In this document: positions 12,440-31,139 of the stretch, piece by piece
How the letters are laid out: every line of letters begins with the position of its first letter
Position numbering within the stretch: position 1 is the stretch's first letter
NCBI GenBank assembly: GCA_017450465.1
Contig: JAFSUW010000021.1
Span: 69,856 to 101,855 of the forward strand
Reading direction: 5' to 3'
Length of the DNA: 32,000 nt
DNA from: Clostridia bacterium
GTDB lineage: Bacteria; Bacillota; Clostridia; TANB77; RGIG9151
Made by a program: the position numbers and the translations under genes
The notes under the pieces: generated by a model
The model's input: only the letters and a program-made list of their open reading frames with translations
What the model was told of the DNA's origin: nothing
The model's database searches: none

Positions 12440-13882
12440 TTAATATGCTCTTCCCCAATATACCATATATTTTGCAGGTTTTCCGCAGCAAATACATGTG
12501 TCTGACAAGTGTTCTTGTATCTCACCAATACATCTTGAAGTTACTCCACCTGTTTTATCTTTTATATCAAGTTCACATTCCTTTTCACCGCACCACATTG
12601 CTTTTACAAAGCCAGGTTTTGGTTCATTTAATAAATTATTAAATTCTTCAAATGTGGTAGCACTTCTTGTTAATTCTTCTTTCATTTTAAGTGCTTTTTG
12701 ATACATATCATTATGAATTACTTCAAGTAATTTTGTTATTTCTTCTTCAATGTTATTTAATGATACAGATATCTTTTCACGAGTATCACGTCTTACTAAA
12801 ACTGCTTGATTATTTTCAATATCTTTAGGGCCAATTTCAACTCTTATTGGCACACCACGCATTTCATATTCACTAAACTTCCAACCAGGCATTTTGTCTG
12901 TTGTGTCAATTTTAGTTCTTGCAACCTTAGATATCCTATCTTTAATTTCAGTTGCCTTTTCTATTACACCTTCTTTATGTTGTGCAATAGGGATTACAAT
13001 AACTTGTGTTGGTGCAAGTTTTGGAGGTAAAACTAAACCAAAATCATCACCATGTACCATAATTACGGCACCAATAAGTCTTGTTGATACACCCCATGAT
13101 GTTTCATAAACATATTGAAGTTCATTATTTTTATCTAAAAATTGTATATTAAATGCTTTTGCAAAACCATTACCAAAGTAATGTGATGTACCAGATTGAA
13201 GTGCCTTACCATCATGCATTAATGCCTCTATTGAATAAGTTTCTTCAGCTCCTGCAAATTTTTCTTTATCAGTTTTTCTTCCCTTATTAACTGGAAGTGC
13301 TAAAAAGTCTTTACAAAAATCTGCATAAATATTTAACATTCTAATAGTTTCTTCACGTGCTTCCTCTGCTGTAGCATGAACAGTATGCCCTTCTTGCCAT
13401 AAAAATTCCCTTGAACGTAAGAAAGGTCTTGTTGTTTTTTCCCAACGAACAACACTACACCATTGATTATATAACTTTGGTAAATCTTTATATGACTTTA
13501 CTATGTTTGCATAGTGGTCACAAAATAGTGTTTCAGAAGTTGGCCTTACACATAATCTTTCTTCAAGTTCTGTTTCACCACCATGAGTTACCCAGGCAAC
13601 TTCTGGAGCAAAACCTTCTATATGATCTTTTTCTTTATTAAGCAAACTTTCAGATATAAACATTGGCATGTAAACATTTTCATGTCCTGTTTCTTTAAAC
13701 ATTCTATCTAATTCTCTTTGCATGTTTTCCCAAAGTGCATACCCATACGGGCGTATTATAAGACACCCTTTAATAGATGAATAGTCTGCAAGTTCTGCAT
13801 TTTTTACTACATCTGTGTACCATTGTGCAAAATCTTCTGACATAGATGTAATAGATTCTACTTGTTTTTTGTCGTTACCCAT
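12440..13882 (-). CDS. proS: proline--tRNA ligase, archaeal/eukaryote-like class IIa form
   Basis: 480 aa with class II motifs ([19 protein letters not shown]), an anticodon-binding domain, and a C-terminal Cys cluster ending ...[18 protein letters not shown]. Confidence 0.93.
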
Positions 13883-16505: not shown

Positions 16506-18020
16506 CTATACCTTTTCTATATCTTCTTCTTCCACTGTCATTAAAGTTTCTTTATCGAGTGTATCTAAATTACTTATACGAAGTGCTTGATTTGTAATTG
16601 CCTTTTCAAACATGTTTCTTACATATCTACCATTACCAAAACGTGTGTCCACTCTTACTTCATCCAAAATAGCTTTAACTTTCTCCTTTGCACCATCTGA
16701 TAATGTATATCCATTAGAAGCAAATGTTAAATCTGCAATTTGCATTAACTCATCTAATGTATAATCTGTAAATTCTACTCTATTTGGGAATCTTGAAAGA
16801 AGCCCTGAGTTTGCATCTAAAAACTCTGTCATTTCCTTTGTGTAACCTGCTAAGATTACTACTAATCTATCTCTATTATCATCCATTAATTTTACAAGAG
16901 TATCTATTGCCTCTTTACCAAAACTATCATTTTGATTTGATAACGAATATGCTTCATCAATGAAAAGCACACCATCCAACGCTTCTTCAACTTTCTTTGT
17001 TGTCTTAATTGCAGTTTGTCCAACATATCCTGCAACAAGCCCTGCTCTATCGGTTTCAACTAGTTTATCCGTATCTATTACACCCAAACTATAAAGCATT
17101 TTGGCTACTGTTCTTGCCATCATTGTTTTACCAGTACCTGGGTTACCCATAAATATCATGTGAAGAGTTTGAGTAGTGTTATTGATAAGACCTAACTTTT
17201 CACGCTCTTTACTTACTTTAATCTTTGCAGCTAAACCACGAATATAGTTTTTTACTCCATCTAACCCTATTATCTTGTTAAAGTCTGCTTCATAGTCAAA
17301 TGTAGGGCCTTCGTCTACTTTTGCTCCCAAATCCTCTTTAGTGATTAAGGTCATCTTATCTTGTGAAATATCATCATTTACTATTCTACTACTTTGATTT
17401 CTTACTACTTCATCTAAAAAGTTTCTTACCATTCTTCCGTTTCCAGATGCCGCATTTGATCTCTTATAAAGTTCACCTATTTTTTCTTTTGCAAACTTTT
17501 CAGCATCTGGGTCTAGCATAAATCCCTTTTGTTTTACCATTACATTAAATATACTATAAAGCTCATCAGCATTATAATCTGGAAAATCAATTGATATTGG
17601 GAAACGTGATGTAAGTCCACTATTTACCTCTAAAAACTCACCCATTTCTTTTTTATATCCAGCAAGTATTACAACAATTTCACCACGATTATCTTCAATT
17701 AATTTTACAAGTGTATCAATTGCTTCTTTGCCAAAAGTATCATTACCACTAGCTAACGCATATGCTTCATCTATAAATAGCACTCCACCAAGAGCAGACT
17801 TAAATACATCTTCCGTCTTTACCGCAGTTTGCCCAACATACTCTGCAACAAGTCCACGTCTATCTGTTTCTACTAAATGGCCACTCTTTAGTACGCCCAT
17901 TTCTTTTAACATTTTGGCTACAACTCTTGCTATTGTTGTTTTACCTGTACCTGGATTACCTGTAAATATCATATTTAAGCTTTGAGTTGTATCTACTTCT
18001 TGCCCTGCTTCTCTACGCAT
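16506..18020 (-). CDS. tandem double AAA+ ATPase, CbbX/SpoVK type. The annotated start is probably not the real N-terminus.
   Basis: Two modules, each with GNPGTGKT (Walker A), VLFIDEAY (Walker B), VVILAGY and SRFP. In-frame conserved sequence (DIIGLENVKDFLRKQYNILKAQK) continues upstream to 18131 without any ATG, GTG or TTG. Confidence 0.85.
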   Translation of the reverse strand: MRREAGQEVDTTQSLNMIFTGNPGTGKTTIARVVAKMLKEMGVLKSGHLVETDRRGLVAEYVGQTAVKTEDVFKSALGGVLFIDEAYALASGNDTFGKEAIDTLVKLIEDNRGEIVVILAGYKKEMGEFLEVNSGLTSRFPISIDFPDYNADELYSIFNVMVKQKGFMLDPDAEKFAKEKIGELYKRSNAASGNGRMVRNFLDEVVRNQSSRIVNDDISQDKMTLITKEDLGAKVDEGPTFDYEADFNKIIGLDGVKNYIRGLAAKIKVSKEREKLGLINNTTQTLHMIFMGNPGTGKTMMARTVAKMLYSLGVIDTDKLVETDRAGLVAGYVGQTAIKTTKKVEEALDGVLFIDEAYSLSNQNDSFGKEAIDTLVKLMDDNRDRLVVILAGYTKEMTEFLDANSGLLSRFPNRVEFTDYTLDELMQIADLTFASNGYTLSDGAKEKVKAILDEVRVDTRFGNGRYVRNMFEKAITNQALRISNLDTLDKETLMTVEEEDIEKV

Positions 18021-18103
18021 CTTTTGTGCTTTTAAAATATTATACTGCTTCCTTAAAAAGTCTTTTACATTTTCAAGACCAATTATGTCTTTTATATTAC
18101 TTT

Positions 18104-20377
18104 CTAAATCGAATTCCTCTTTTTCTTTAATTCAAAATCCACAAGTTTTAATACTTGCAAATCACCATCATTAGCATTTACAATTCTGTTTGATTGATTT
18201 ACTATTGCTTTTTCTACTACATTTCTTACAAGTCGTCCATTACCATTATCATTTCTACCTTTAATATTCTTTGATTCAAAGTATGTAATAAGTGGCTCTA
18301 TGCAAGAATTATCAATAATATAATCATTCTTCTTAGCAATTTCATCCGCAATCAAATACATTTCCTTTGGCGTATAGTCAGCAAATTCTACAAAGTTTGG
18401 AAAACGTGATTTTAGGCCAGAATTACTCTTTAAGAAATGTTCCATTTCCGCTTTATAACCTGCCAAAATTACCACTAAATTATCTTTATTGTCTTCCATC
18501 ATTTTTACTAATGTGTCTATCGCTTCTAAACCAAAAGTATCATTCTTATCTCTTGATAGTGAATATGCTTCATCTATAAATAATACTCCACCAAGTGCTG
18601 AACTTATCTTTGCAGTTGTCTTTGCAGCAGTTTCTCCTACATGTTCTCCAACAAGGTCTCCACGCGTTACTTCAACAAGCTGACCTTTTTCAAGTACTCC
18701 AAGAGCTTTTAAGTACTCCGCTACTATTCTTGCAATAGTAGTTTTTCCTGTTCCAGGATTACCTGTAAATATCATATTCATTGAAATTGAAGAATTTTTA
18801 AAACCTGCTTCTTCTCTCATTTTCCTAGCTACTACGTTATCTTCAAGTTTTAGTACATATTCTTTTACTTCATTAAGTCCTATTATTGAATTTAACTCTG
18901 CTTTTACTTCTTCTAAAGTTTCATTCGTCTTTTTTTGTGCAAATTTACTTAGTTTTATTACATTTTTCTCATCATAAACCGCAACTTCATTCTCTACTAC
19001 AACAAGTGTTAATTGTTGTTCATTTGTTGGTTGCATTTTTAGTTTATAATCTACCAATGGCTTATGAATATTTTGCTCTATATAATACTTTATACTTCGC
19101 ATACCTATATTCTTGCTATAAAATTGTTTCAAAAAGTCGATAAGACCTTCATCATAATATAAACTTAACTCTAATTCACTACGACAGCTAACTACAAAAT
19201 AATTTGTATAATTTGCAACCATTCTTGTAATTTCTTCATCAGAAAAATCTTTTACCTCAATAACATCTCCAATTTTACTAAATACAGAATCTCCAACAAT
19301 AGCTCCAAAATCTCTTGGTTCACCCATCGAAATGAATACAAAATACTTATTGTTACATGAAATCTTTGCTCTACCATCGTTAGTATCTACATAAGTAAAG
19401 TTATTTTTTAATAAATCCACCAAAAAGGCGGTATTTTTACTAGATAATGCTTTAAAATTTTCTATAACTATTACTTCTTCTTGATCATTTAATAGATGTA
19501 TAAAATTATTTGCAAATTCTACATAGTTTTCATCTTTACTATATTGTGCACAATCAAATCTTGATACACCTGCTTTTATAACCAGCTCCTCCGTCATCAT
19601 AGACGAAATAACATTTACAAGTTCTAATAATAATTCGGATTCATTTGTAAATATTGTTATTATGTTTTTAGGTGCATTTAAGTCATTTTTTATAAGATAT
19701 GGTCTTTCAAATGCTACAACTAGATTATTTATTAAATCTTTACTAGTCATATACATATTTGAAAGTTCGCTTCTTATTTTAGCAAAAACATCTTTGTAAT
19801 TTATTTCACGAGTTACTTTTTCTTCTTTTTTGAATTCAGTTATAACGTTTGCTATTCTTTCATCTGTAAGACCGAATGTTAGTTTATACATATCTAGTAT
19901 TTTCATTTGTTCTTCATTTGGCCCACCACCAATGGTAGCCATCTTGTAGAATAGTTGGAATAAGCTATCTTCAAAAGCTTCCTGCTCTTTCATTGGCTTT
20001 GCCTTATAATACAAATCGATGCCTTCGTGTAAATTATATACTACATACTTAGTCTTTTCGTGGAAAAACTTTTTCTTTTCATCTTGATAAACTTTAGTTA
20101 TATCCAAAAATTGCGATTTAGTTAAATTAAATCTATTTATATAGTCTCCCACAAATTTATCAAACTCAGCAAAAAACTCAGGGTTCGCACGAGCTATTTG
20201 AGCAAACAATAATACGATACAATATATATCATTATCTGCTATCTCTTCTGCTCTATAAGCACGCCCTTTTCTTAATCTTAAGTTTGCTCCACATTTTGGA
20301 CAAACGCAATTAAAAATCACTTGATTTGGAAGTCCTACTATACTTGCACAACTTGGACATTCGAAAGTATTATTCAT
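18104..20377 (-). CDS. zinc-ribbon / TerB-like / degenerate-AAA / CbbX-type AAA+ multidomain ATPase
   Basis: 757 aa. N-terminal CPSC...CPKC ribbon, a helical region, then a C-terminal module IIGLNEVKEY...GNPGTGKT...LFIDEAY...VVILAGY closely similar to the modules of the downstream gene. Confidence 0.85.
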   Translation of the reverse strand: MNNTFECPSCASIVGLPNQVIFNCVCPKCGANLRLRKGRAYRAEEIADNDIYCIVLLFAQIARANPEFFAEFDKFVGDYINRFNLTKSQFLDITKVYQDEKKKFFHEKTKYVVYNLHEGIDLYYKAKPMKEQEAFEDSLFQLFYKMATIGGGPNEEQMKILDMYKLTFGLTDERIANVITEFKKEEKVTREINYKDVFAKIRSELSNMYMTSKDLINNLVVAFERPYLIKNDLNAPKNIITIFTNESELLLELVNVISSMMTEELVIKAGVSRFDCAQYSKDENYVEFANNFIHLLNDQEEVIVIENFKALSSKNTAFLVDLLKNNFTYVDTNDGRAKISCNNKYFVFISMGEPRDFGAIVGDSVFSKIGDVIEVKDFSDEEITRMVANYTNYFVVSCRSELELSLYYDEGLIDFLKQFYSKNIGMRSIKYYIEQNIHKPLVDYKLKMQPTNEQQLTLVVVENEVAVYDEKNVIKLSKFAQKKTNETLEEVKAELNSIIGLNEVKEYVLKLEDNVVARKMREEAGFKNSSISMNMIFTGNPGTGKTTIARIVAEYLKALGVLEKGQLVEVTRGDLVGEHVGETAAKTTAKISSALGGVLFIDEAYSLSRDKNDTFGLEAIDTLVKMMEDNKDNLVVILAGYKAEMEHFLKSNSGLKSRFPNFVEFADYTPKEMYLIADEIAKKNDYIIDNSCIEPLITYFESKNIKGRNDNGNGRLVRNVVEKAIVNQSNRIVNANDGDLQVLKLVDFELKKKRNSI

Positions 20378-22254: not shown

Positions 22255-23346
22255 TTATACATTAAACCTAAATAACACAACATCACCATTTTGCATTACA
22301 TAGTCTTTTCCTTCTAAACGCATTAAACCCTTTTCTTTTACAGCATTTACAGAGCCATATTTTATTAAATCATCATAATTTACAACCTCTGCTTTTATAA
22401 ATCCACGCTCTATATCTGTGTGTATCTTGCCTGCCGCTTGTGGTGCCTTAGTTCCTTTTGTTATTGTCCATGCCCTTACTTCTGGTTCACCTGCTGTTAA
22501 GAAACTAATAAGGCCAAGCAAATCATAACCTGCTTTTATTAATTTATCTAAGCCAGATTCTTCTACACCAAGTTCCTTCAAAAATTCCATCTTTTCATTA
22601 TCTTCAAGTGTAGATAATTCTTCTTCTATCTTTGCAGAAATCGCAATTGCTTTTGAATTTTCAGTTTTTGCAAATTCTTTTAATTCTTTAAAGTATTTAT
22701 TATCATCAGCAGTTGCTATTTCTTCTTCGCTAATGTTTCCAACATATATTACTGGCTTAGATGTAAGTAAGAATGTACCGCGAATTATTTCTTGTTCTTC
22801 ATCGTTTAAGTCTAGCGTTCTTACACTCTTTCCAGCTTCTAAAACTTTTTTTGCTTTTTCTAGCGTATCTACTTCTATTTGAAACTTCTTATCGCCACGA
22901 GCTGCCTTAACTGCTTTTTCTAAACGCTTTTCTACCATATCAAGGTCTGCTAAAATAAGCTCTAAATTAATTGTTTCTACATCACGAAGTGGAGATATAC
23001 TTCCTTCAACGTGGACAATATCCGCATTTTCAAAGCATCTTACAACGTGGACTATTGCATCAGTTTCACGAATGTGTGATAAAAATTTATTTCCAAGTCC
23101 TTCACCTTTACTTGCTCCCTTGACCAAACCTGCTATATCTACAAATTCTACAACTGCTGGTGTAACTTTTTGTGGATGATATATTTTTGCAAGTTCATTT
23201 AATCTTTCATCTGGCACCGCAACAACTCCAACATTTGGTTCTATGGTACAAAATGGGTAATTAGCGCATTCAGCCCCTGCTTTTGTTATCGCATTAAATA
23301 AAGTACTCTTTCCTACGTTTGGTAGTCCTACTATTCCAAGTTTCAT
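22255..23346 (-). CDS. ychF: redox-regulated ribosome-binding ATPase YchF
   Basis: MKLGIVGLPNVGKSTLFNA, a coiled-coil insert and a C-terminal TGS domain (GFIKAEV...GKDYVMQNGDVVLFRFNV). Confidence 0.95.
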   Translation of the reverse strand: MKLGIVGLPNVGKSTLFNAITKAGAECANYPFCTIEPNVGVVAVPDERLNELAKIYHPQKVTPAVVEFVDIAGLVKGASKGEGLGNKFLSHIRETDAIVHVVRCFENADIVHVEGSISPLRDVETINLELILADLDMVEKRLEKAVKAARGDKKFQIEVDTLEKAKKVLEAGKSVRTLDLNDEEQEIIRGTFLLTSKPVIYVGNISEEEIATADDNKYFKELKEFAKTENSKAIAISAKIEEELSTLEDNEKMEFLKELGVEESGLDKLIKAGYDLLGLISFLTAGEPEVRAWTITKGTKAPQAAGKIHTDIERGFIKAEVVNYDDLIKYGSVNAVKEKGLMRLEGKDYVMQNGDVVLFRFNV

Positions 23347-23370
23347 TTTATCTATCTCCTTTTCTAATGT

Positions 23371-24123
23371 TTACATCATATCGCTCATTGAATATAGTTT
23401 GCCTGGTTTTTTATCCACAATATATTTAACTGCTTTTAATGCCCCGGCAGCAAATATTTCTCGTGAAAACGACTTATGCGTAATTTCTAAAACTTCATCC
23501 TGGCCTAAAAACATTACTGTATGTTCACCAACCATATTACCACCACGAATAGAATGTATACCTATTTCGTTTTTAGGACGTTTTTCGTGACGTGAATGAC
23601 GTTCAAAACAATAATTTTCTTTTTCATCAACCACCTCATTTATAGCATCTGCTATCATTAATGCAGTGCCACTTGGTGCATCTACTTTTGTATTATGATG
23701 TATATCTGTTATTTCTATATCAAAATCATCTGCTAGTACCTTTGACGCTTGTTTTACTAAACTTAAAAGTAAATTTACTCCAATAGACATATTGGCTGAA
23801 CGAAATACTGGTATCTTATGTGCAGCTTCTTCTATTTTCTTTGACTGCTCATCATTAAATCCAGTTGTTGCAATTACAAGCGGTGTGTTTGTTTTTTCTC
23901 CATAGCTTAACACGCTATCTAAGCAAACTGCATTTGAAAAATCTAGAACTACATCCGCTTTTTCAGTGCATTCTTCAATACTCTTATAAACTGGATAATC
24001 GTTTAATGCTTGTCCATCTATAGAAACCCCGGCAACAACTTTTAGGGTTTCATCTTTTTCAATGAGGTGAGTTATTACCTGCCCCATTTTTCCATTACTT
24101 CCAGACAAAATAATATTAATCAT
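23371..24123 (-). CDS. dapB: 4-hydroxy-tetrahydrodipicolinate reductase
   Basis: N-terminal GSNGKMG Rossmann motif and EITDIHHNTKVDAPSGTA, the DapB signature. Confidence 0.9.
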   Translation of the reverse strand: MINIILSGSNGKMGQVITHLIEKDETLKVVAGVSIDGQALNDYPVYKSIEECTEKADVVLDFSNAVCLDSVLSYGEKTNTPLVIATTGFNDEQSKKIEEAAHKIPVFRSANMSIGVNLLLSLVKQASKVLADDFDIEITDIHHNTKVDAPSGTALMIADAINEVVDEKENYCFERHSRHEKRPKNEIGIHSIRGGNMVGEHTVMFLGQDEVLEITHKSFSREIFAAGALKAVKYIVDKKPGKLYSMSDMM

Positions 24124-24132
24124 ATGTATCTC

Positions 24133-25014
24133 CTACTTTCTATATTCTTCCATTGCTCTATATAAAATTTCTTTATTCTTTTCACTCATTTCAATAAGTG
24201 GAAGTCGCACGCCTCCAACATCAAAACCAAGTTTTCTTACAGCGGCCTTTACTGGAATAGGATTTACTTCACAAAATAGTGCATTTATTAAATCTAAAGC
24301 CCTTAACTGAATTGCCTTACTTGCTTCTATATTACCATTCATAAATTCAATTACCATGTTATGCGTATCTTGTGGTTCAACATCTGCAAGAACTGATATA
24401 ACACCTTTTGCACCTAACGCTAGCATGGGTACTACTTGGTCATCGTTCCCCGAATAAATATATAAATTATCACCACAAAGATATGCAATTTTAGCAACTT
24501 GTGAAATATTTCCACTGGCTTCTTTTATTGCTACAATGTTTTCAATTTTAGATAATTCATACATTGTTTCAGCTGTCATATTTACACCAGTTCTTCCTGG
24601 CACATTATACATAATAATTGGTATATTTATACTATTTGCTATTGCTTTATAATGCTCTATTAAACCATTTTGCGTTGTTTTATTATAATAAGGCGTAACA
24701 ACTAAAACACCATCTGCGCCTACAGATTCGGCGTATTTTGACATTTCTATAGCTGCCTTAGTAGAATTTGAGCCAGTTCCAGCAATAACAGGAATACGTT
24801 TATTTACTTTATCTATCGTGTATTTTATTACTTCTTTTCTTTCTTCTTCTGTCATAGTTGATGGTTCACCAGTTGTTCCACATATTATTATTGCATCCGT
24901 ATTATTTTCGATATGAAACTCAATTAATTTACTTAAAGTATCATAATTTACCCCTGTTTCTGTAAATGGTGTTATTAGTGCAACTCCCGAACCTATAAAT
25001 GGTATTTTTTTCAT
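24133..25014 (-). CDS. dapA: 4-hydroxy-tetrahydrodipicolinate synthase
   Basis: GSGVALITPF, GTTGE, YNVPGRTG and an active-site Lys region (AIKEASGN). The start is moved to the ATG at 25014, 6 nt after AAAGGAAG. Confidence 0.9.
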   Translation of the reverse strand: MKKIPFIGSGVALITPFTETGVNYDTLSKLIEFHIENNTDAIIICGTTGEPSTMTEEERKEVIKYTIDKVNKRIPVIAGTGSNSTKAAIEMSKYAESVGADGVLVVTPYYNKTTQNGLIEHYKAIANSINIPIIMYNVPGRTGVNMTAETMYELSKIENIVAIKEASGNISQVAKIAYLCGDNLYIYSGNDDQVVPMLALGAKGVISVLADVEPQDTHNMVIEFMNGNIEASKAIQLRALDLINALFCEVNPIPVKAAVRKLGFDVGGVRLPLIEMSEKNKEILYRAMEEYRK

Positions 25015-25144
25015 TTTAATCTTCCTTTCGATAAAATTATCCAAAATGAGTATATCACGAAATTATAACTATGTAAAACATATTATTTAATTTTATGAAT
25101 ATAATTTTAATACATATTATTCATTTAAACGAAAGAAGGTTACA

Positions 25145-27759: not shown

Positions 27760-28917
27760 CTATAGACCTATCGTATAAGGATTACCTACGTCCCCAGTTC
27801 CGCCTGTTATCTTGATTCCAGATTTTAGAGTTATTACTGGGCGCACCCCGTCCGTAGGGACGCCCGCGCCAGCGCTGCCGTCCGAACCCGCAATGAACAC
27901 GTCGTTGTAGCTGACACTACCACTCGTGCCCAAGCAGCGCACGTAGAAATGGGAGGTGCTGGAGTAGGTGTTCAGACCACGCGAAGCGAGCCATACGTAT
28001 CCACTGCTGTGCTTTAGGTTTGCATTACCACTTATCACGCTTTGGTCGGTGGTGTAGTATGTGTCGCTATATGGTAACACTGCACTTCGTGCTGCATCGA
28101 ATGTTAGTGGATTTGCCGTTGTATCTATTTGCGCTATGCTACTACTCGTTGCTCCTACACTTCTTCCACTTGTTGCATATGTACTATTTACATATGTTGC
28201 ACATTTATCGTTTAGTATTTGTACACAATTTGCATAGTCGCTTTTTGCTTTTTCGGTATCATGAAGACTACTACCACCTAATGTTAAGTTGCCTACACTT
28301 TCTTTACTTATTATTTCTATTACTCCTCCACTGTTTCTTAATACTACCCATTTACCACTATAATCTCCTCCTGTATATGCTATGTAATCTCCTACTTGTA
28401 CATCACTATTGGCCATTATGGCTGTACTGCTTCCGCCACCACTACCACCTTCTGCTAGTACCCAGTCAGTTCCTTCTGCTCCTTCGCAGTATGCCCAGCC
28501 AGCTTCTCCATAGCCATATGTTATATTTACAGGACTGCTTGGTGTTGCTAAATTGCAACTTGTACTATCTCCTATTCCTACTGCTATTTTTTGATTATAT
28601 CCTTCTCCTACTGCACATACATAGTACGCTCCATTTCCACCTTCGTATGATTTAGCTGTATAACCGCTACTTATGTATAATGGTGTTACTCCACTTATTT
28701 CGTAGTATTTTGTTGGTGTTGTTGGTAACTGCCCTTCTCCTATATCTGTTTCCCATATACGTACCGCTTTTCCTATTTGTTCTGCTGTACGTTTATCAGC
28801 ACTTACTTGTGCACGCTGCCTTATTCCTGCTAGGTTTGGTACTGCTATTAATGCAATTATACCGAGTATTGCTATTACGATTATTAGTTCTATTAGCGTA
28901 AAGCCTTTTTGTTTCAT
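27760..28917 (-). CDS. type IV pilin-like protein with a large C-terminal globular domain
   Basis: The N-terminus MKQKGFTLIELIIVIAILGIIALIAVPNL carries the prepilin peptidase site G/FTLIE and a hydrophobic alpha1 helix. RBS AAAGGAGG. The C-terminal part has a W-VL...WLASR...GVRPVITL pattern. Confidence 0.85.
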   Translation of the reverse strand: MKQKGFTLIELIIVIAILGIIALIAVPNLAGIRQRAQVSADKRTAEQIGKAVRIWETDIGEGQLPTTPTKYYEISGVTPLYISSGYTAKSYEGGNGAYYVCAVGEGYNQKIAVGIGDSTSCNLATPSSPVNITYGYGEAGWAYCEGAEGTDWVLAEGGSGGGSSTAIMANSDVQVGDYIAYTGGDYSGKWVVLRNSGGVIEIISKESVGNLTLGGSSLHDTEKAKSDYANCVQILNDKCATYVNSTYATSGRSVGATSSSIAQIDTTANPLTFDAARSAVLPYSDTYYTTDQSVISGNANLKHSSGYVWLASRGLNTYSSTSHFYVRCLGTSGSVSYNDVFIAGSDGSAGAGVPTDGVRPVITLKSGIKITGGTGDVGNPYTIGL

Positions 28918-28948: not shown

Positions 28949-29063
28949 AACACCTCATCTGTCACTACGTGACATCTTCCCCTCAAGGGGAAGACTTTAA
29001 ATTTTCACTAGCCGTATGCCTTCCCCTCGAGGGGAAGGTGGCCGTAAGGCCGGATGAGGTGTT
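28949..29063. repeat. 115-bp composite palindromic element in the 5' leader of the pilin-like gene
   Basis: Outer arms AACACCTCATC / GATGAGGTGTT enclose four hairpins: GTCAC-TAC-GTGAC, CTTCCCCT-CA-AGGGGAAG, CCTTCCCCT-CG-AGGGGAAGG and GGCC-GTAA-GGCC. Confidence 0.7.
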
Positions 29064-29157: not shown

Positions 29158-29208
29158 TTACCCCCCCCCGATGTAAATATTTACCATATTATTTAATTCA
29201 TATCCCAT
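29158..29208 (-). CDS. possible 16-codon mini-ORF ending in three GGG codons (G9 tract)
   Basis: GGGAGGTG lies 5 nt before the ATG (GGAGG core 7 nt upstream). Product is MGYELNNMVNIYIGGG followed by a stop. The terminator hairpin starts about 20 nt downstream. Confidence 0.3.
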   Translation of the reverse strand: MGYELNNMVNIYIGGG

Positions 29209-29304: not shown

Positions 29305-29979
29305 CTATATTTCACCAAAATCTATAGTTTTAATAGTACCATTTTCTTCATAAACTAATGCACCATTTTCATCTACATCTTTTATAATAACCTCTTTATT
29401 AAGCGACTTTATAAAATACTTTTCATTTTTATAAATCATATTATTCCTAAATGTATCTACAATATCTTCTACATCAAAATTTGCCTTATTCTTGATAAGT
29501 ACTTCACAAATATTCATCATAATTAAACCATTATCCACTTGTTTATTTAATTCATTTAACAATGACGTACCTGTTGTTATCAAATATTCTTTACTTATAT
29601 TAGTATTTATTCCTATTCCAATAATAACCTTATTATCTATAATCTCAGCTATAATACCACAAAGCTTTTTGCCATTTATATATAAATCATTAGGCCATTT
29701 TAATTTAACATCTATATCATAAAGTTCTTTTAACACATTAAAGACACTAACGCCAACAAACATAGTAAATAATTCTAATCTTTTGCTATCCACATTAGAT
29801 ACATCAAAAACACAAGAAAACCATAGTCCGCCCTCTTTCGACTGCCATATGTTGCCTGTCCTACCACGACCAGCAGTTTGAACTTTCGCACATACTACAG
29901 TATCGTCTTCAATATCGATTATATTATCTTTTATATATTTCTGCGTCGAATCTATCTCATCAAATTTTATTATTTTCAT
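29305..29979 (-). CDS. birA: biotin--[acetyl-CoA-carboxylase] ligase, group I (no N-terminal HTH)
   Basis: GRGRTGNIWQS and KWPNDLY motifs. Start placed at the ATG at 29979 (MKIIKFDEIDSTQ), 5 nt after GGGGGA. Confidence 0.85.
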   Translation of the reverse strand: MKIIKFDEIDSTQKYIKDNIIDIEDDTVVCAKVQTAGRGRTGNIWQSKEGGLWFSCVFDVSNVDSKRLELFTMFVGVSVFNVLKELYDIDVKLKWPNDLYINGKKLCGIIAEIIDNKVIIGIGINTNISKEYLITTGTSLLNELNKQVDNGLIMMNICEVLIKNKANFDVEDIVDTFRNNMIYKNEKYFIKSLNKEVIIKDVDENGALVYEENGTIKTIDFGEI

Positions 29980-30859
29980 ACAATTCCCCCACATTACAAA
30001 CATTATATGACCGGTATTTATCTATATAAATAATTTTTTCAAAAACACCTTTATCAAGTAATTCATACAATCTAGTACGTCTTTTTAAATCAGTTTCATC
30101 TTTTCCGTGTGCTGTTGCAACTATTTTTACACCTGCATTTACAGCTGTTAAGATTGCTTCTATATCACTATTTTCTCCTATTTCATCAGTTGCAATAAAA
30201 TCTGGTTTCATTGCACGAACTAACATAAGAATTCCTTCAGACTTGTGAATGCCATCTATAACATCCGTATGTATACCAAGATCATTTTGTGCTACACCTT
30301 TATATGTAGATGCGATTTCAAAACGTTCATCTACTACTCCTACATTCTTACCAGAATTACTTATTTGCCTTATTATATCTCTTAAAAGTGTTGTTTTACC
30401 AAGCCCTGGTGGTGAGACTATTAGTGTACTTAAAAAATCACCATTGTTATTAATATTAGAAATTACACTATCAGCTACACCTATAATCTGTCTTGCAACT
30501 CTTATATTTATAGAAGAAATATCTCGAAGAGAATAAATTGCATTTCCTTTATAAAGTGCTTTACCACAAATACCTACTCTATGCCCTCCTGGAATTGTTA
30601 TAAATCCATTTGCAATTTCTTCTTGATATGCATAAACCGAATTATTACAAATCATTTCAAAACATCTTAAAAGCTCTTCTGACATAACAATATGACTTAA
30701 AACTTCTTCTTTATCGTTATATGATATAATAAATGGCTTGTTTACTCGAATTCTAAACTCTTCAACGCCTTCTAACATTTCATCTGTAATTAATGCCTTT
30801 ATGCTACTTGGAAAAAATTTAATTATTTCACTTTTTATTCTTTTTATATCATTTTCCAT
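29960..30859 (-). CDS. spoIIIAA: stage III sporulation protein AA-like ATPase
   Basis: Clear similarity to B. subtilis SpoIIIAA as recalled (NNSVYAYQEEIANGFITIPGGHRVGICG, INIRVARQ, SPPGLGKTTLLRD, VDERFEIA, ATDEIG, ATAHG). Start moved to the ATG at 30859 (MENDIKR), which has an RBS. Confidence 0.8.
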   Translation of the reverse strand: MENDIKRIKSEIIKFFPSSIKALITDEMLEGVEEFRIRVNKPFIISYNDKEEVLSHIVMSEELLRCFEMICNNSVYAYQEEIANGFITIPGGHRVGICGKALYKGNAIYSLRDISSINIRVARQIIGVADSVISNINNNGDFLSTLIVSPPGLGKTTLLRDIIRQISNSGKNVGVVDERFEIASTYKGVAQNDLGIHTDVIDGIHKSEGILMLVRAMKPDFIATDEIGENSDIEAILTAVNAGVKIVATAHGKDETDLKRRTRLYELLDKGVFEKIIYIDKYRSYNVCNVGELYENNKI

Positions 30860-30935
30860 ATTAACACCCCAATAAATTATATGAAATGAATAAAAAATAA
30901 ATAACCTGTCTATACTTATTTTGAGGTGAATTATT

Positions 30936-31139
30936 ATGGAAACTACAATATTTGATGTAGATGTTTTGTCTTTAGCACAAGCAGTATCACTTAGCAACTT
31001 TTTACATTCAAAACCTGGTGTTGATGATGTTATAGTTGATGCAGAAGGCTCTAAAATAACTGTTACCTATGATCCAGCCACTACTGATAGAACAACTATA
31101 AAAAACTCTATTATTTCTGCTGGCGTTTTACTTCATTAA
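30936..31139 (+). CDS. HMA (CopZ)-fold-like 67-aa protein lacking the CxxC metal site
   Basis: GAGGTGA RBS. The pattern of a beta-alpha-beta-beta-alpha-beta HMA domain (...PGVDDVIVDAEGSKITVTYDPATTDRTTIKNSIISAG) is present, but the usual GMxCxxC position reads DVLSLAQAV. Confidence 0.55.
   Translation: METTIFDVDVLSLAQAVSLSNFLHSKPGVDDVIVDAEGSKITVTYDPATTDRTTIKNSIISAGVLLH

Follow-up and report, generated by a model that had tools for sequence, protein, structure and literature searches.

The stretch of DNA analysed here (the window: 32,000 nucleotides (nt), positions 69,856 to 101,855 of contig JAFSUW010000021.1 in the Clostridia bacterium assembly GCA_017450465.1) carries on its minus strand two overlapping reading frames, with open reading frames (ORFs) of 757 and 504 amino acids (aa), which are two pieces of one 1290-residue multi-AAA+ gene. 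The gene is continuous in its orthologues; the window copy is one base short of the intact alleles in its close relatives; the downstream piece possesses neither a start codon nor a Shine-Dalgarno (SD) sequence of its own; and the junction is devoid of the elements that stimulate ribosomal frameshifting. We consider the interruption to be probably a true frameshift mutation confined to the sequenced strain, not a recoding signal, in which case the organism itself would carry the deletion and the consensus would be correct. The locus is either an ordinary indel-disrupted gene or a base-call error: as in other indel-disrupted genes, an intact collinear ORF exists in close relatives and the downstream fragment is without start signals.

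Two frames at the junction and the intact allele

The upstream ORF ends on the minus strand with ...GAT TTT GAA TTA AAG AAA AAG AGG AAT TCG ATT TAG, its peptide finishing as ...VDFELKKKRNSI before the TAG at 18106-18104. The 504-aa ORF runs from its first ATG at 18020 to 16506, its initial Met being residue 787 of the intact protein, and the conserved start of its first module (...EEFDLESNIKDIIGLENVK...) sits in frame on the 5' side of that ATG. The 37 codons between the TGA at 18134-18132 and ATG 18020, which read IKEKEEFDLESNIKDIIGLENVKDFLRKQYNILKAQK, begin ATT AAA GAA AAA GAG GAA TTC GAT TTA GAA AGT AAT ATA AAA GAC ATA ATT GGT CTT GAA AAT GTA AAA ..., and ATG, GTG and TTG are all absent from this frame between 18131 and 18021. 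The open stretch is not a chance occurrence, because it is 100% identical at the protein level to the matching part of the intact 1290-aa protein; it also aligns to positions 2-29 of the profile TIGR02881. The positions of the ORFs, the TGA and the heptamer, the -1 relationship of the frames and the lack of an ATG, GTG or TTG, all described in the original prediction, were correct when re-read from the sequence (Table 1).

The decisive match came from a look-up of exact-sequence clusters; of two word-indexed protein searches, the first gave two matches only and the second missed the orthologue P0001 described below. The matching protein, P0088, is a single ORF of 1290 aa that falls into a 90% cluster common to both database proteins derived from the window. 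It equals the conceptual fusion of the window ORFs, identical except at the junction, where it reads ...LVDFELKEKEEFDLES..., with ELKEKEEF at the differing site. P0088 is recorded on six contigs of other assemblies (ENA ERZ28018714 and Logan SRR12529396 among them), on which its neighbourhood is the same as in the window: YchF, ABC-F, the gene itself, RsmI, Fic, GNAT, NUDIX and ProRS. The fusion of roughly 1290 aa that had been proposed, with three intact modules and a degenerate one, therefore exists as one protein with three modules; the degenerate module is likely, on weaker evidence, and would belong to another clade.

Comparison at the DNA level covered two of the six contigs, L004 (ENA ERZ28018714) and L005 (Logan SRR12529396), which are 99.98-99.99% identical to the window, differing from it by three single-nucleotide polymorphisms (SNPs) and two indels in 23,874 nt (L004) and by one SNP and one indel in 15,299 nt (L005). 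At the junction both contigs read GAATTAAAAGAAAAAGAGG, against GAATTAAAGAAAAAGAGG in the window; in the DNA alignment this is GAATT-AAAA-G-AAAAA-GAGG in L004 and L005 and GAATT-AAA-G-AAAAA-GAGG in the window. Because both contigs read A4, one A is missing from the run at 18126-18128, and the A5 run is unchanged. An undercalled A, through assembly error or pseudogenisation, had been offered as an alternative to recoding; the loss of one A holds against both contigs, but the base is missing from the A4 run and not from the A5 run to which it had been assigned. The intact allele reads TTA AAA GAA AAA GAG GAA, and the correct junction peptide, given by P0088 and by the DNA alignment alike, is ELKEKEEFDLES instead of the ELKKKEEFDLES first proposed. 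The AAG AAA AAG slippery register exists because the deletion shifted the frame, and is absent from the intact allele.

Continuity extends beyond the conspecific contigs. P0001, a protein of 1300 aa with 70% identity, is encoded by a single ORF at locus L001 of a sister species; its neighbours there, ABC-F (96% aa identity) and RsmI (91%), make it a syntenic orthologue. Its junction, GAT TTT GAG TTG ATG CCG AAG GAA GAA TTT GAT TTA GAG, is in frame and contains no A-run. A HMMER search, run exhaustively with the first 520 aa as query, yielded 83 family representatives, whose lengths cluster near 680, 950-1016 and 1215-1300 aa. P0002 (48% identity) is continuous through the junction linker, and six of the 83 representatives, P0005, P0007, P0008, P0011, P0016 and P0045 (17-33% identity to the first 480 residues of the window protein), are polypeptides unbroken across it, the linker pattern common to these seven being DF.[LF]....[FY][DN]LE....[IV][IV]GL..VK. 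The comparison of orthologous loci that had been suggested as a check thus gives one ORF in a single frame in P0001, P0002 and the six others. A genome scan with the N-terminal domain profile found no relative in a collection that may lack or mask the window's own genome; a second scan, with the neighbouring ABC-F gene (best match 76% identity), found the N-terminal domain in 0 of 80 loci and no further syntenic orthologue; and scans of JGI metagenomes, one with a junction DNA pattern tolerating A3-A5 and one with the N-terminal domain profile, gave no match in either.

Table 1. Features of the interrupted multi-AAA+ gene (window coordinates)
Feature	Position	Strand	Description
Whole gene	16506..20377	minus	Single 1290-codon ORF in conspecific contigs; a 1-nt deletion interrupts the window copy
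Upstream ORF, 757 aa	20377..18104	minus	Residues 1-751 of the intact protein, then six residues (KKRNSI) read out of frame
Downstream frame	16506..18131	minus	-1 relative to the 757-aa ORF; codons from 18128 on are residues 751-1290 of the intact protein
TGA	18132..18134	minus	5' closure of the downstream frame; upstream limit of the 9-codon interval for a rejoining -1 shift
Deletion site	18126..18128	minus	A3 run in the window, A4 in L004 and L005 (TTAAAG vs TTAAAAG)
AAG AAA AAG	18127-18119	minus	Frame of the 757-aa ORF
G AAA AAG heptamer	18119..18125	minus	In intact alleles the same bases read (A)AA GAA AAA GAG, not a slippery site in frame

Recoding, separate initiation and the origin of the deletion

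The original prediction placed a dnaX-like -1 slip at the G AAA AAG heptamer, which would imply an evolved, programmed frameshift that delivers products of 757 and about 1290 aa in a set ratio. The geometry of the overlap fits such an event, the tetranucleotide A_AAG is known to be prone to -1 shifts in bacteria and is a minimal site for them (Atkins et al. 2016, PMC5009743), and members of the family with one, two and three modules exist, so that proteins of either length would be plausible. However, G AAA AAG departs from the strict X XXY YYZ pattern; it holds the minimal shift-prone A_AAG, and it is the deletion alone that has brought it into register. The 89 nt on its 3' side are predicted to fold no better than shuffled sequences (minimum free energy -9.2 kcal/mol, shuffle mean -8.3, z = -0.40), and the 25 nt on its 5' side (AAACTTGTGGATTTTGAATTAAA) contain no GGAGG-like motif that could act as an upstream SD-like element. 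The two-frame arrangement and its slip site are absent from the six conspecific contigs, which encode the protein in one frame at 99.98-99.99% DNA identity; from the syntenic orthologue at L001, which has no A-run at the junction; and from the seven further, more distant relatives, which are unbroken. Programmed frameshifting is therefore very improbable. Transcriptional slippage and phase variation at the junction were also considered and rejected, since runs of A3-A5 are too short for either. A 1-nt indel that shifts the frame of an A-rich Lys/Glu linker can make it look like the slippery site of dnaX, and comparison with conspecific assemblies resolves such mimicry at once.

Separate initiation of the downstream part, at an ATT or ATA codon or at ATG 18020, would instead make the locus a recent gene fission that yields a functional pair of proteins, one with one module and one with two. 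Gene callers do emit the 504-aa protein, and family members with fewer modules exist. Against this, no SD sequence precedes ATG 18020 (TTTTAAAAGCACAAAAG), whereas a GGAGG-like site stands 5-10 nt ahead of the start codon in most genes of the window, and no SD sequence is suitably spaced for an in-frame ATT or ATA, the sequence GAGGA at 18119-18115 being 19 nt from the nearest ATA. The downstream ORF thus has no start of its own, as first described, and the initiation at ATT or ATA suggested to explain this finds no support. Translation from Met787 would cut off about 28 positions of the SpoVK model and with them the IIGLxxVK helix, which is part of the adenine-binding hairpin (PMC11513918), and the split is known from one assembly only. 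Because there is no SD sequence and the module would be deprived of its N-terminal helix, non-canonical starts and reinitiation at ATG 18020 were both rejected, and gene fission appears highly unlikely.

In the 23.9 kb common to the window and L004 there are 638 homopolymer runs of at least 4 bases, 221 of at least 5 and 60 of at least 6. Two of the 638 differ, namely the A3/A4 run at the junction and a C9/C8 run at 29161-29169, leaving agreement at 636 of 638 overall and at 59 of the 60 runs of at least 6 bases; thus, the assembly is not generally prone to homopolymer errors. An error-prone chemistry would be expected to fail at the long A/T runs before it failed at 4-mers. It would be strange for an error to strike a 4-mer and spare 59 longer runs, and this speaks for a real variant. 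The C9/C8 tract is of a kind that truly varies between strains, and the window possesses real private variation elsewhere: at 12674, in the ProRS gene, it reads GAA (Glu), whereas L004 and L005 both have GAT (Asp), a private SNP that indicates genuine strain-level divergence in this genome.

Several observations weigh against a genuine mutation. Both indels between the window and L004 are homopolymeric, the C9/C8 run being the only one apart from the junction, and this is a pattern that technical errors also give; the A3 allele is present in a single assembly and the split products on one contig, whereas the intact ORF is found on all six other contigs. An artefact, in which the organism has A4, the consensus dropped one A and the gene is a normal 1290-aa ORF, still competes with mutation when judged from assembled sequences, and is a possible but less likely reading.

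If the mutation is genuine, loss of one A (minus strand, 18126-18128) would change the codons TTA AAA GAA to TTA AAG AAA, so that translation would leave the true frame after Lys751, add KKRNSI and stop at 18104. The remaining 539 codons, which specify modules 2 and 3, would lie in the -1 frame, with neither a start codon nor a ribosome-binding site; the product would be a truncated one-module protein, and the two distal modules would be largely silenced. At most, tRNA-Lys could slip by -1 at error level and so release a little full-length protein: after a slip at TT[A AAG] the product would be identical to the wild type, and after one at AA[A AAG] it would carry E752K.

A -1 shift can rejoin the frames only within the nine codons from TGA 18134-18132 to TAG 18106-18104, an interval in which a second A_AAG (18128-18125, minus strand) lies beside the one inside G AAA AAG. 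The predicted junction peptides are ELKEKEEFDLESNIK for a slip at the first A_AAG and ELKKKEEFDLESNIK for a slip at G AAA AAG, the 0-frame product ending in ELKKKRNSI. In E. coli test cases, suppression of 1-bp deletions by non-programmed means reached 1-10% in aggregate (Springstein et al. 2024, PMC10861913). Because A_AAG is shift-prone and suppression reaches this level in those E. coli cases, some leak within the nine-codon interval is plausible if the deletion is real. That the A3 run is real and that non-programmed tRNA-Lys slippage in the overlap also supplies a useful amount of the 1290-aa protein is unlikely. Such a locus would produce a mix of the one-module 757-aa protein and a little of the three-module protein, and would be a 'pseudo-pseudogene' as in Atkins et al. 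(2016, PMC5009743).

Protein architecture, family and neighbouring features

The joined protein begins with a zinc ribbon, after which come a helical region, a likely degenerate AAA+ module that may be Clp-D2-like, and three AAA+ modules of the SpoVK/CbbX/EccA clade. Pfam assigns one pair of AAA and AAA_lid_6 domains to the upstream protein and two pairs to the downstream protein, PF00004 and PF17866 matching each module. The profile TIGR02881 (spore_V_K, 261 positions) scores 842.6 bits on the joined protein (cut-off 422.95) in three full-length stretches, the best of which, in the middle, pairs residues 759-1017 with profile positions 2-261; because this match starts at residue 759 and the Met encoded at 18020 is residue 787, the ORF that begins there is without approximately the first 28 profile positions. 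TIGR03922 and TIGR02880 are also above their own cut-offs on the joined protein. As read from the translations, all three modules possess IIGLxxVK, GNPGTGKT, LFIDEAY, ILAGY (the sensor-1 'GY') and GNGRxxRN (sensor-2). The IIGLxxVK motif precedes each of the three, as the original prediction stated, and its position upstream of ATG 18020 in the first module of the 504-aa ORF is confirmed by the TIGR02881 alignment and by identity to P0088. A bihelical hairpin upstream of Walker A binds adenine and defines the SpoVK/CbbX/EccA clade (Delerue et al. 2024, PMC11513918), whose signatures are this helical hairpin, the GY sensor-1 and a second (sensor-2) arginine (PMC11513918); the sequences of the three modules predict such a hairpin upstream of each Walker A. 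The best solved relatives are CbbX (3SYL, 3ZUH) and EccA1 (9LUR), with E ~1e-54.

The N-terminal region is of another kind. Its CxxC...CxxC zinc ribbon (residues 7-29) has weak matches to Pfam zinc ribbons, and the helical region that follows has a weak match to TerB. The degenerate P-loop module occupies approximately residues 195-480 and has lost its Walker A (FTNESELL), which is intact at the corresponding position in P0002 (GPEGTGKRT), P0011 and P0045. Residues 384-451 match Pfam ClpB_D2-small weakly (E = 0.015), and a Foldseek search with a low-confidence AlphaFold2 model of residues 1-480 (predicted local distance difference test score, pLDDT, 58.9) returned only structures of nucleotide-binding domain 2 of ClpB, ClpC and Skd3, with E down to 3e-8 and template modelling scores of ~0.47-0.49 to 300-aa targets. 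The hhalign comparison of this module with the SpoVK-type modules was not significant (probability 0.8%). The module is thus not detectably SpoVK-type, and the model, in agreement with the weak ClpB_D2-small match, hints at a Clp D2-like nature. Identity with SpoVK proper, the stage V sporulation protein K that acts as a MurG chaperone, was rejected in view of the 1290-aa length, the three modules and an N-terminal region of 480 aa that is of another kind than a short beta-rich domain.

The database calls from the window are a 629-aa version of the upstream ORF (P0003) and the 504-aa ORF, each found on one 102-kb contig only. P0003 starts at Met129, and the zinc-ribbon N-terminus read from ATG 20377 (window 19994-20377, minus strand) is conserved in P0001 and P0004 (MxNTxECPxC...CPxC). 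Because the ribbon aligns with both proteins, the start of the 757-aa ORF at ATG 20377 is real and the deposited call is 128 aa short at its N-terminus. For annotation, the 629/757-aa and 504-aa entries are fragments of one 1290-aa gene that is frameshifted or mis-called; they represent neither two proteins nor a case of recoding.

Proteins with the N-terminal domain (P0005-P0086) bear one, two or three SpoVK-type modules at lengths of ~680, ~950-1016 and ~1215-1300 aa, respectively. It is tempting to speculate that hexamers are built from 6, 3 or 2 chains of the one-, two- and three-module proteins. The second module of P0016 is apparently truncated internally (...LVETDKGEKDLSGIVGLDNVK...). 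When the window is compared with L001 and L002, the multi-AAA+ gene proves to diverge far more quickly than the genes around it, with 70% identity overall and 51% over the N-terminal 500 aa to the sister-species orthologue, against 96% and 91% for the flanking ABC-F and RsmI. This rare, fast-evolving gene may be of interest for work on SpoVK/CbbX/EccA chaperones, separately from the frameshift.

Elsewhere in the window, at 29960-30997 and 22255-25044, Pfam labels mark spoIIIAA (Spore_III_AA), dapA/dapB and a peptidoglycan-binding protein with a Hydrolase_2 domain (SleB-like); because of this gene context, the organism, whose DNA is 32% GC, looks like an endospore-forming member of the Bacillota. 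The poly-G tract at 29161-29169 (C9 on the plus strand, G9 on the minus strand) is G9 in the window and G8 in L004, and lies at the 3' end of an SD-preceded mini-ORF of 16 aa (MGYELNNMVNIYIGGG*) at 29207-29157 on the minus strand. With G8 the mini-ORF extends to 32 aa (it is called in L004 at 1171-1269), and a terminator-like hairpin follows at approximately 29135-29095. The mini-ORF could encode a phase-variable leader peptide, or the tract could be only hypervariable or error-prone. Two GC-rich hairpins (CCTTCCCCTCGAGGGGAAGG, CTTCCCCTTGAGGGGAAG) sit inside a long nested inverted repeat (AACACCTCATC...GATGAGGTGTT) at 28950-29060 on the minus strand; the repeat lies just 5' of a gene for a 385-aa prepilin-type (N_methyl) protein that starts at 28917. 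A search of the whole window against Rfam gave no match.

Comparison with known systems

The programmed frameshift site of dnaX is A AAA AAG, with an SD-like element on its 5' side and a hairpin on its 3' side. The junction resembles it in that two Lys codons, AAA AAG, are read in the 0 frame and the -1 frame continues beyond them. Unlike dnaX, the junction has G rather than A as the first base and lacks both the SD-like element and the hairpin; furthermore, the dnaX shift truncates its protein and is conserved, whereas a shift here would lengthen the protein, and none of the relatives examined has this arrangement. The junction also resembles the frameshift-disrupted alleles with possible compensatory slippage at error level described in PMC5009743 and PMC10861913, which have in common with the window a single-base deletion and a short overlap with A_AAG, where -1 slippage can compensate nearby -1 mutations. 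The shift interval here is only nine codons, in contrast to those alleles, and the deletion is known from one assembled record.

With the SpoVK/CbbX/EccA chaperones the protein has in common that each of its three modules matches TIGR02881 end to end and contains the motifs of the clade. SpoVK of Bacillus subtilis is a single-module protein with a short N-terminal domain, whereas the protein encoded in the window carries three such modules in tandem, preceded by a zinc ribbon, by a helical region and by a degenerate module that may be Clp-D2-like.

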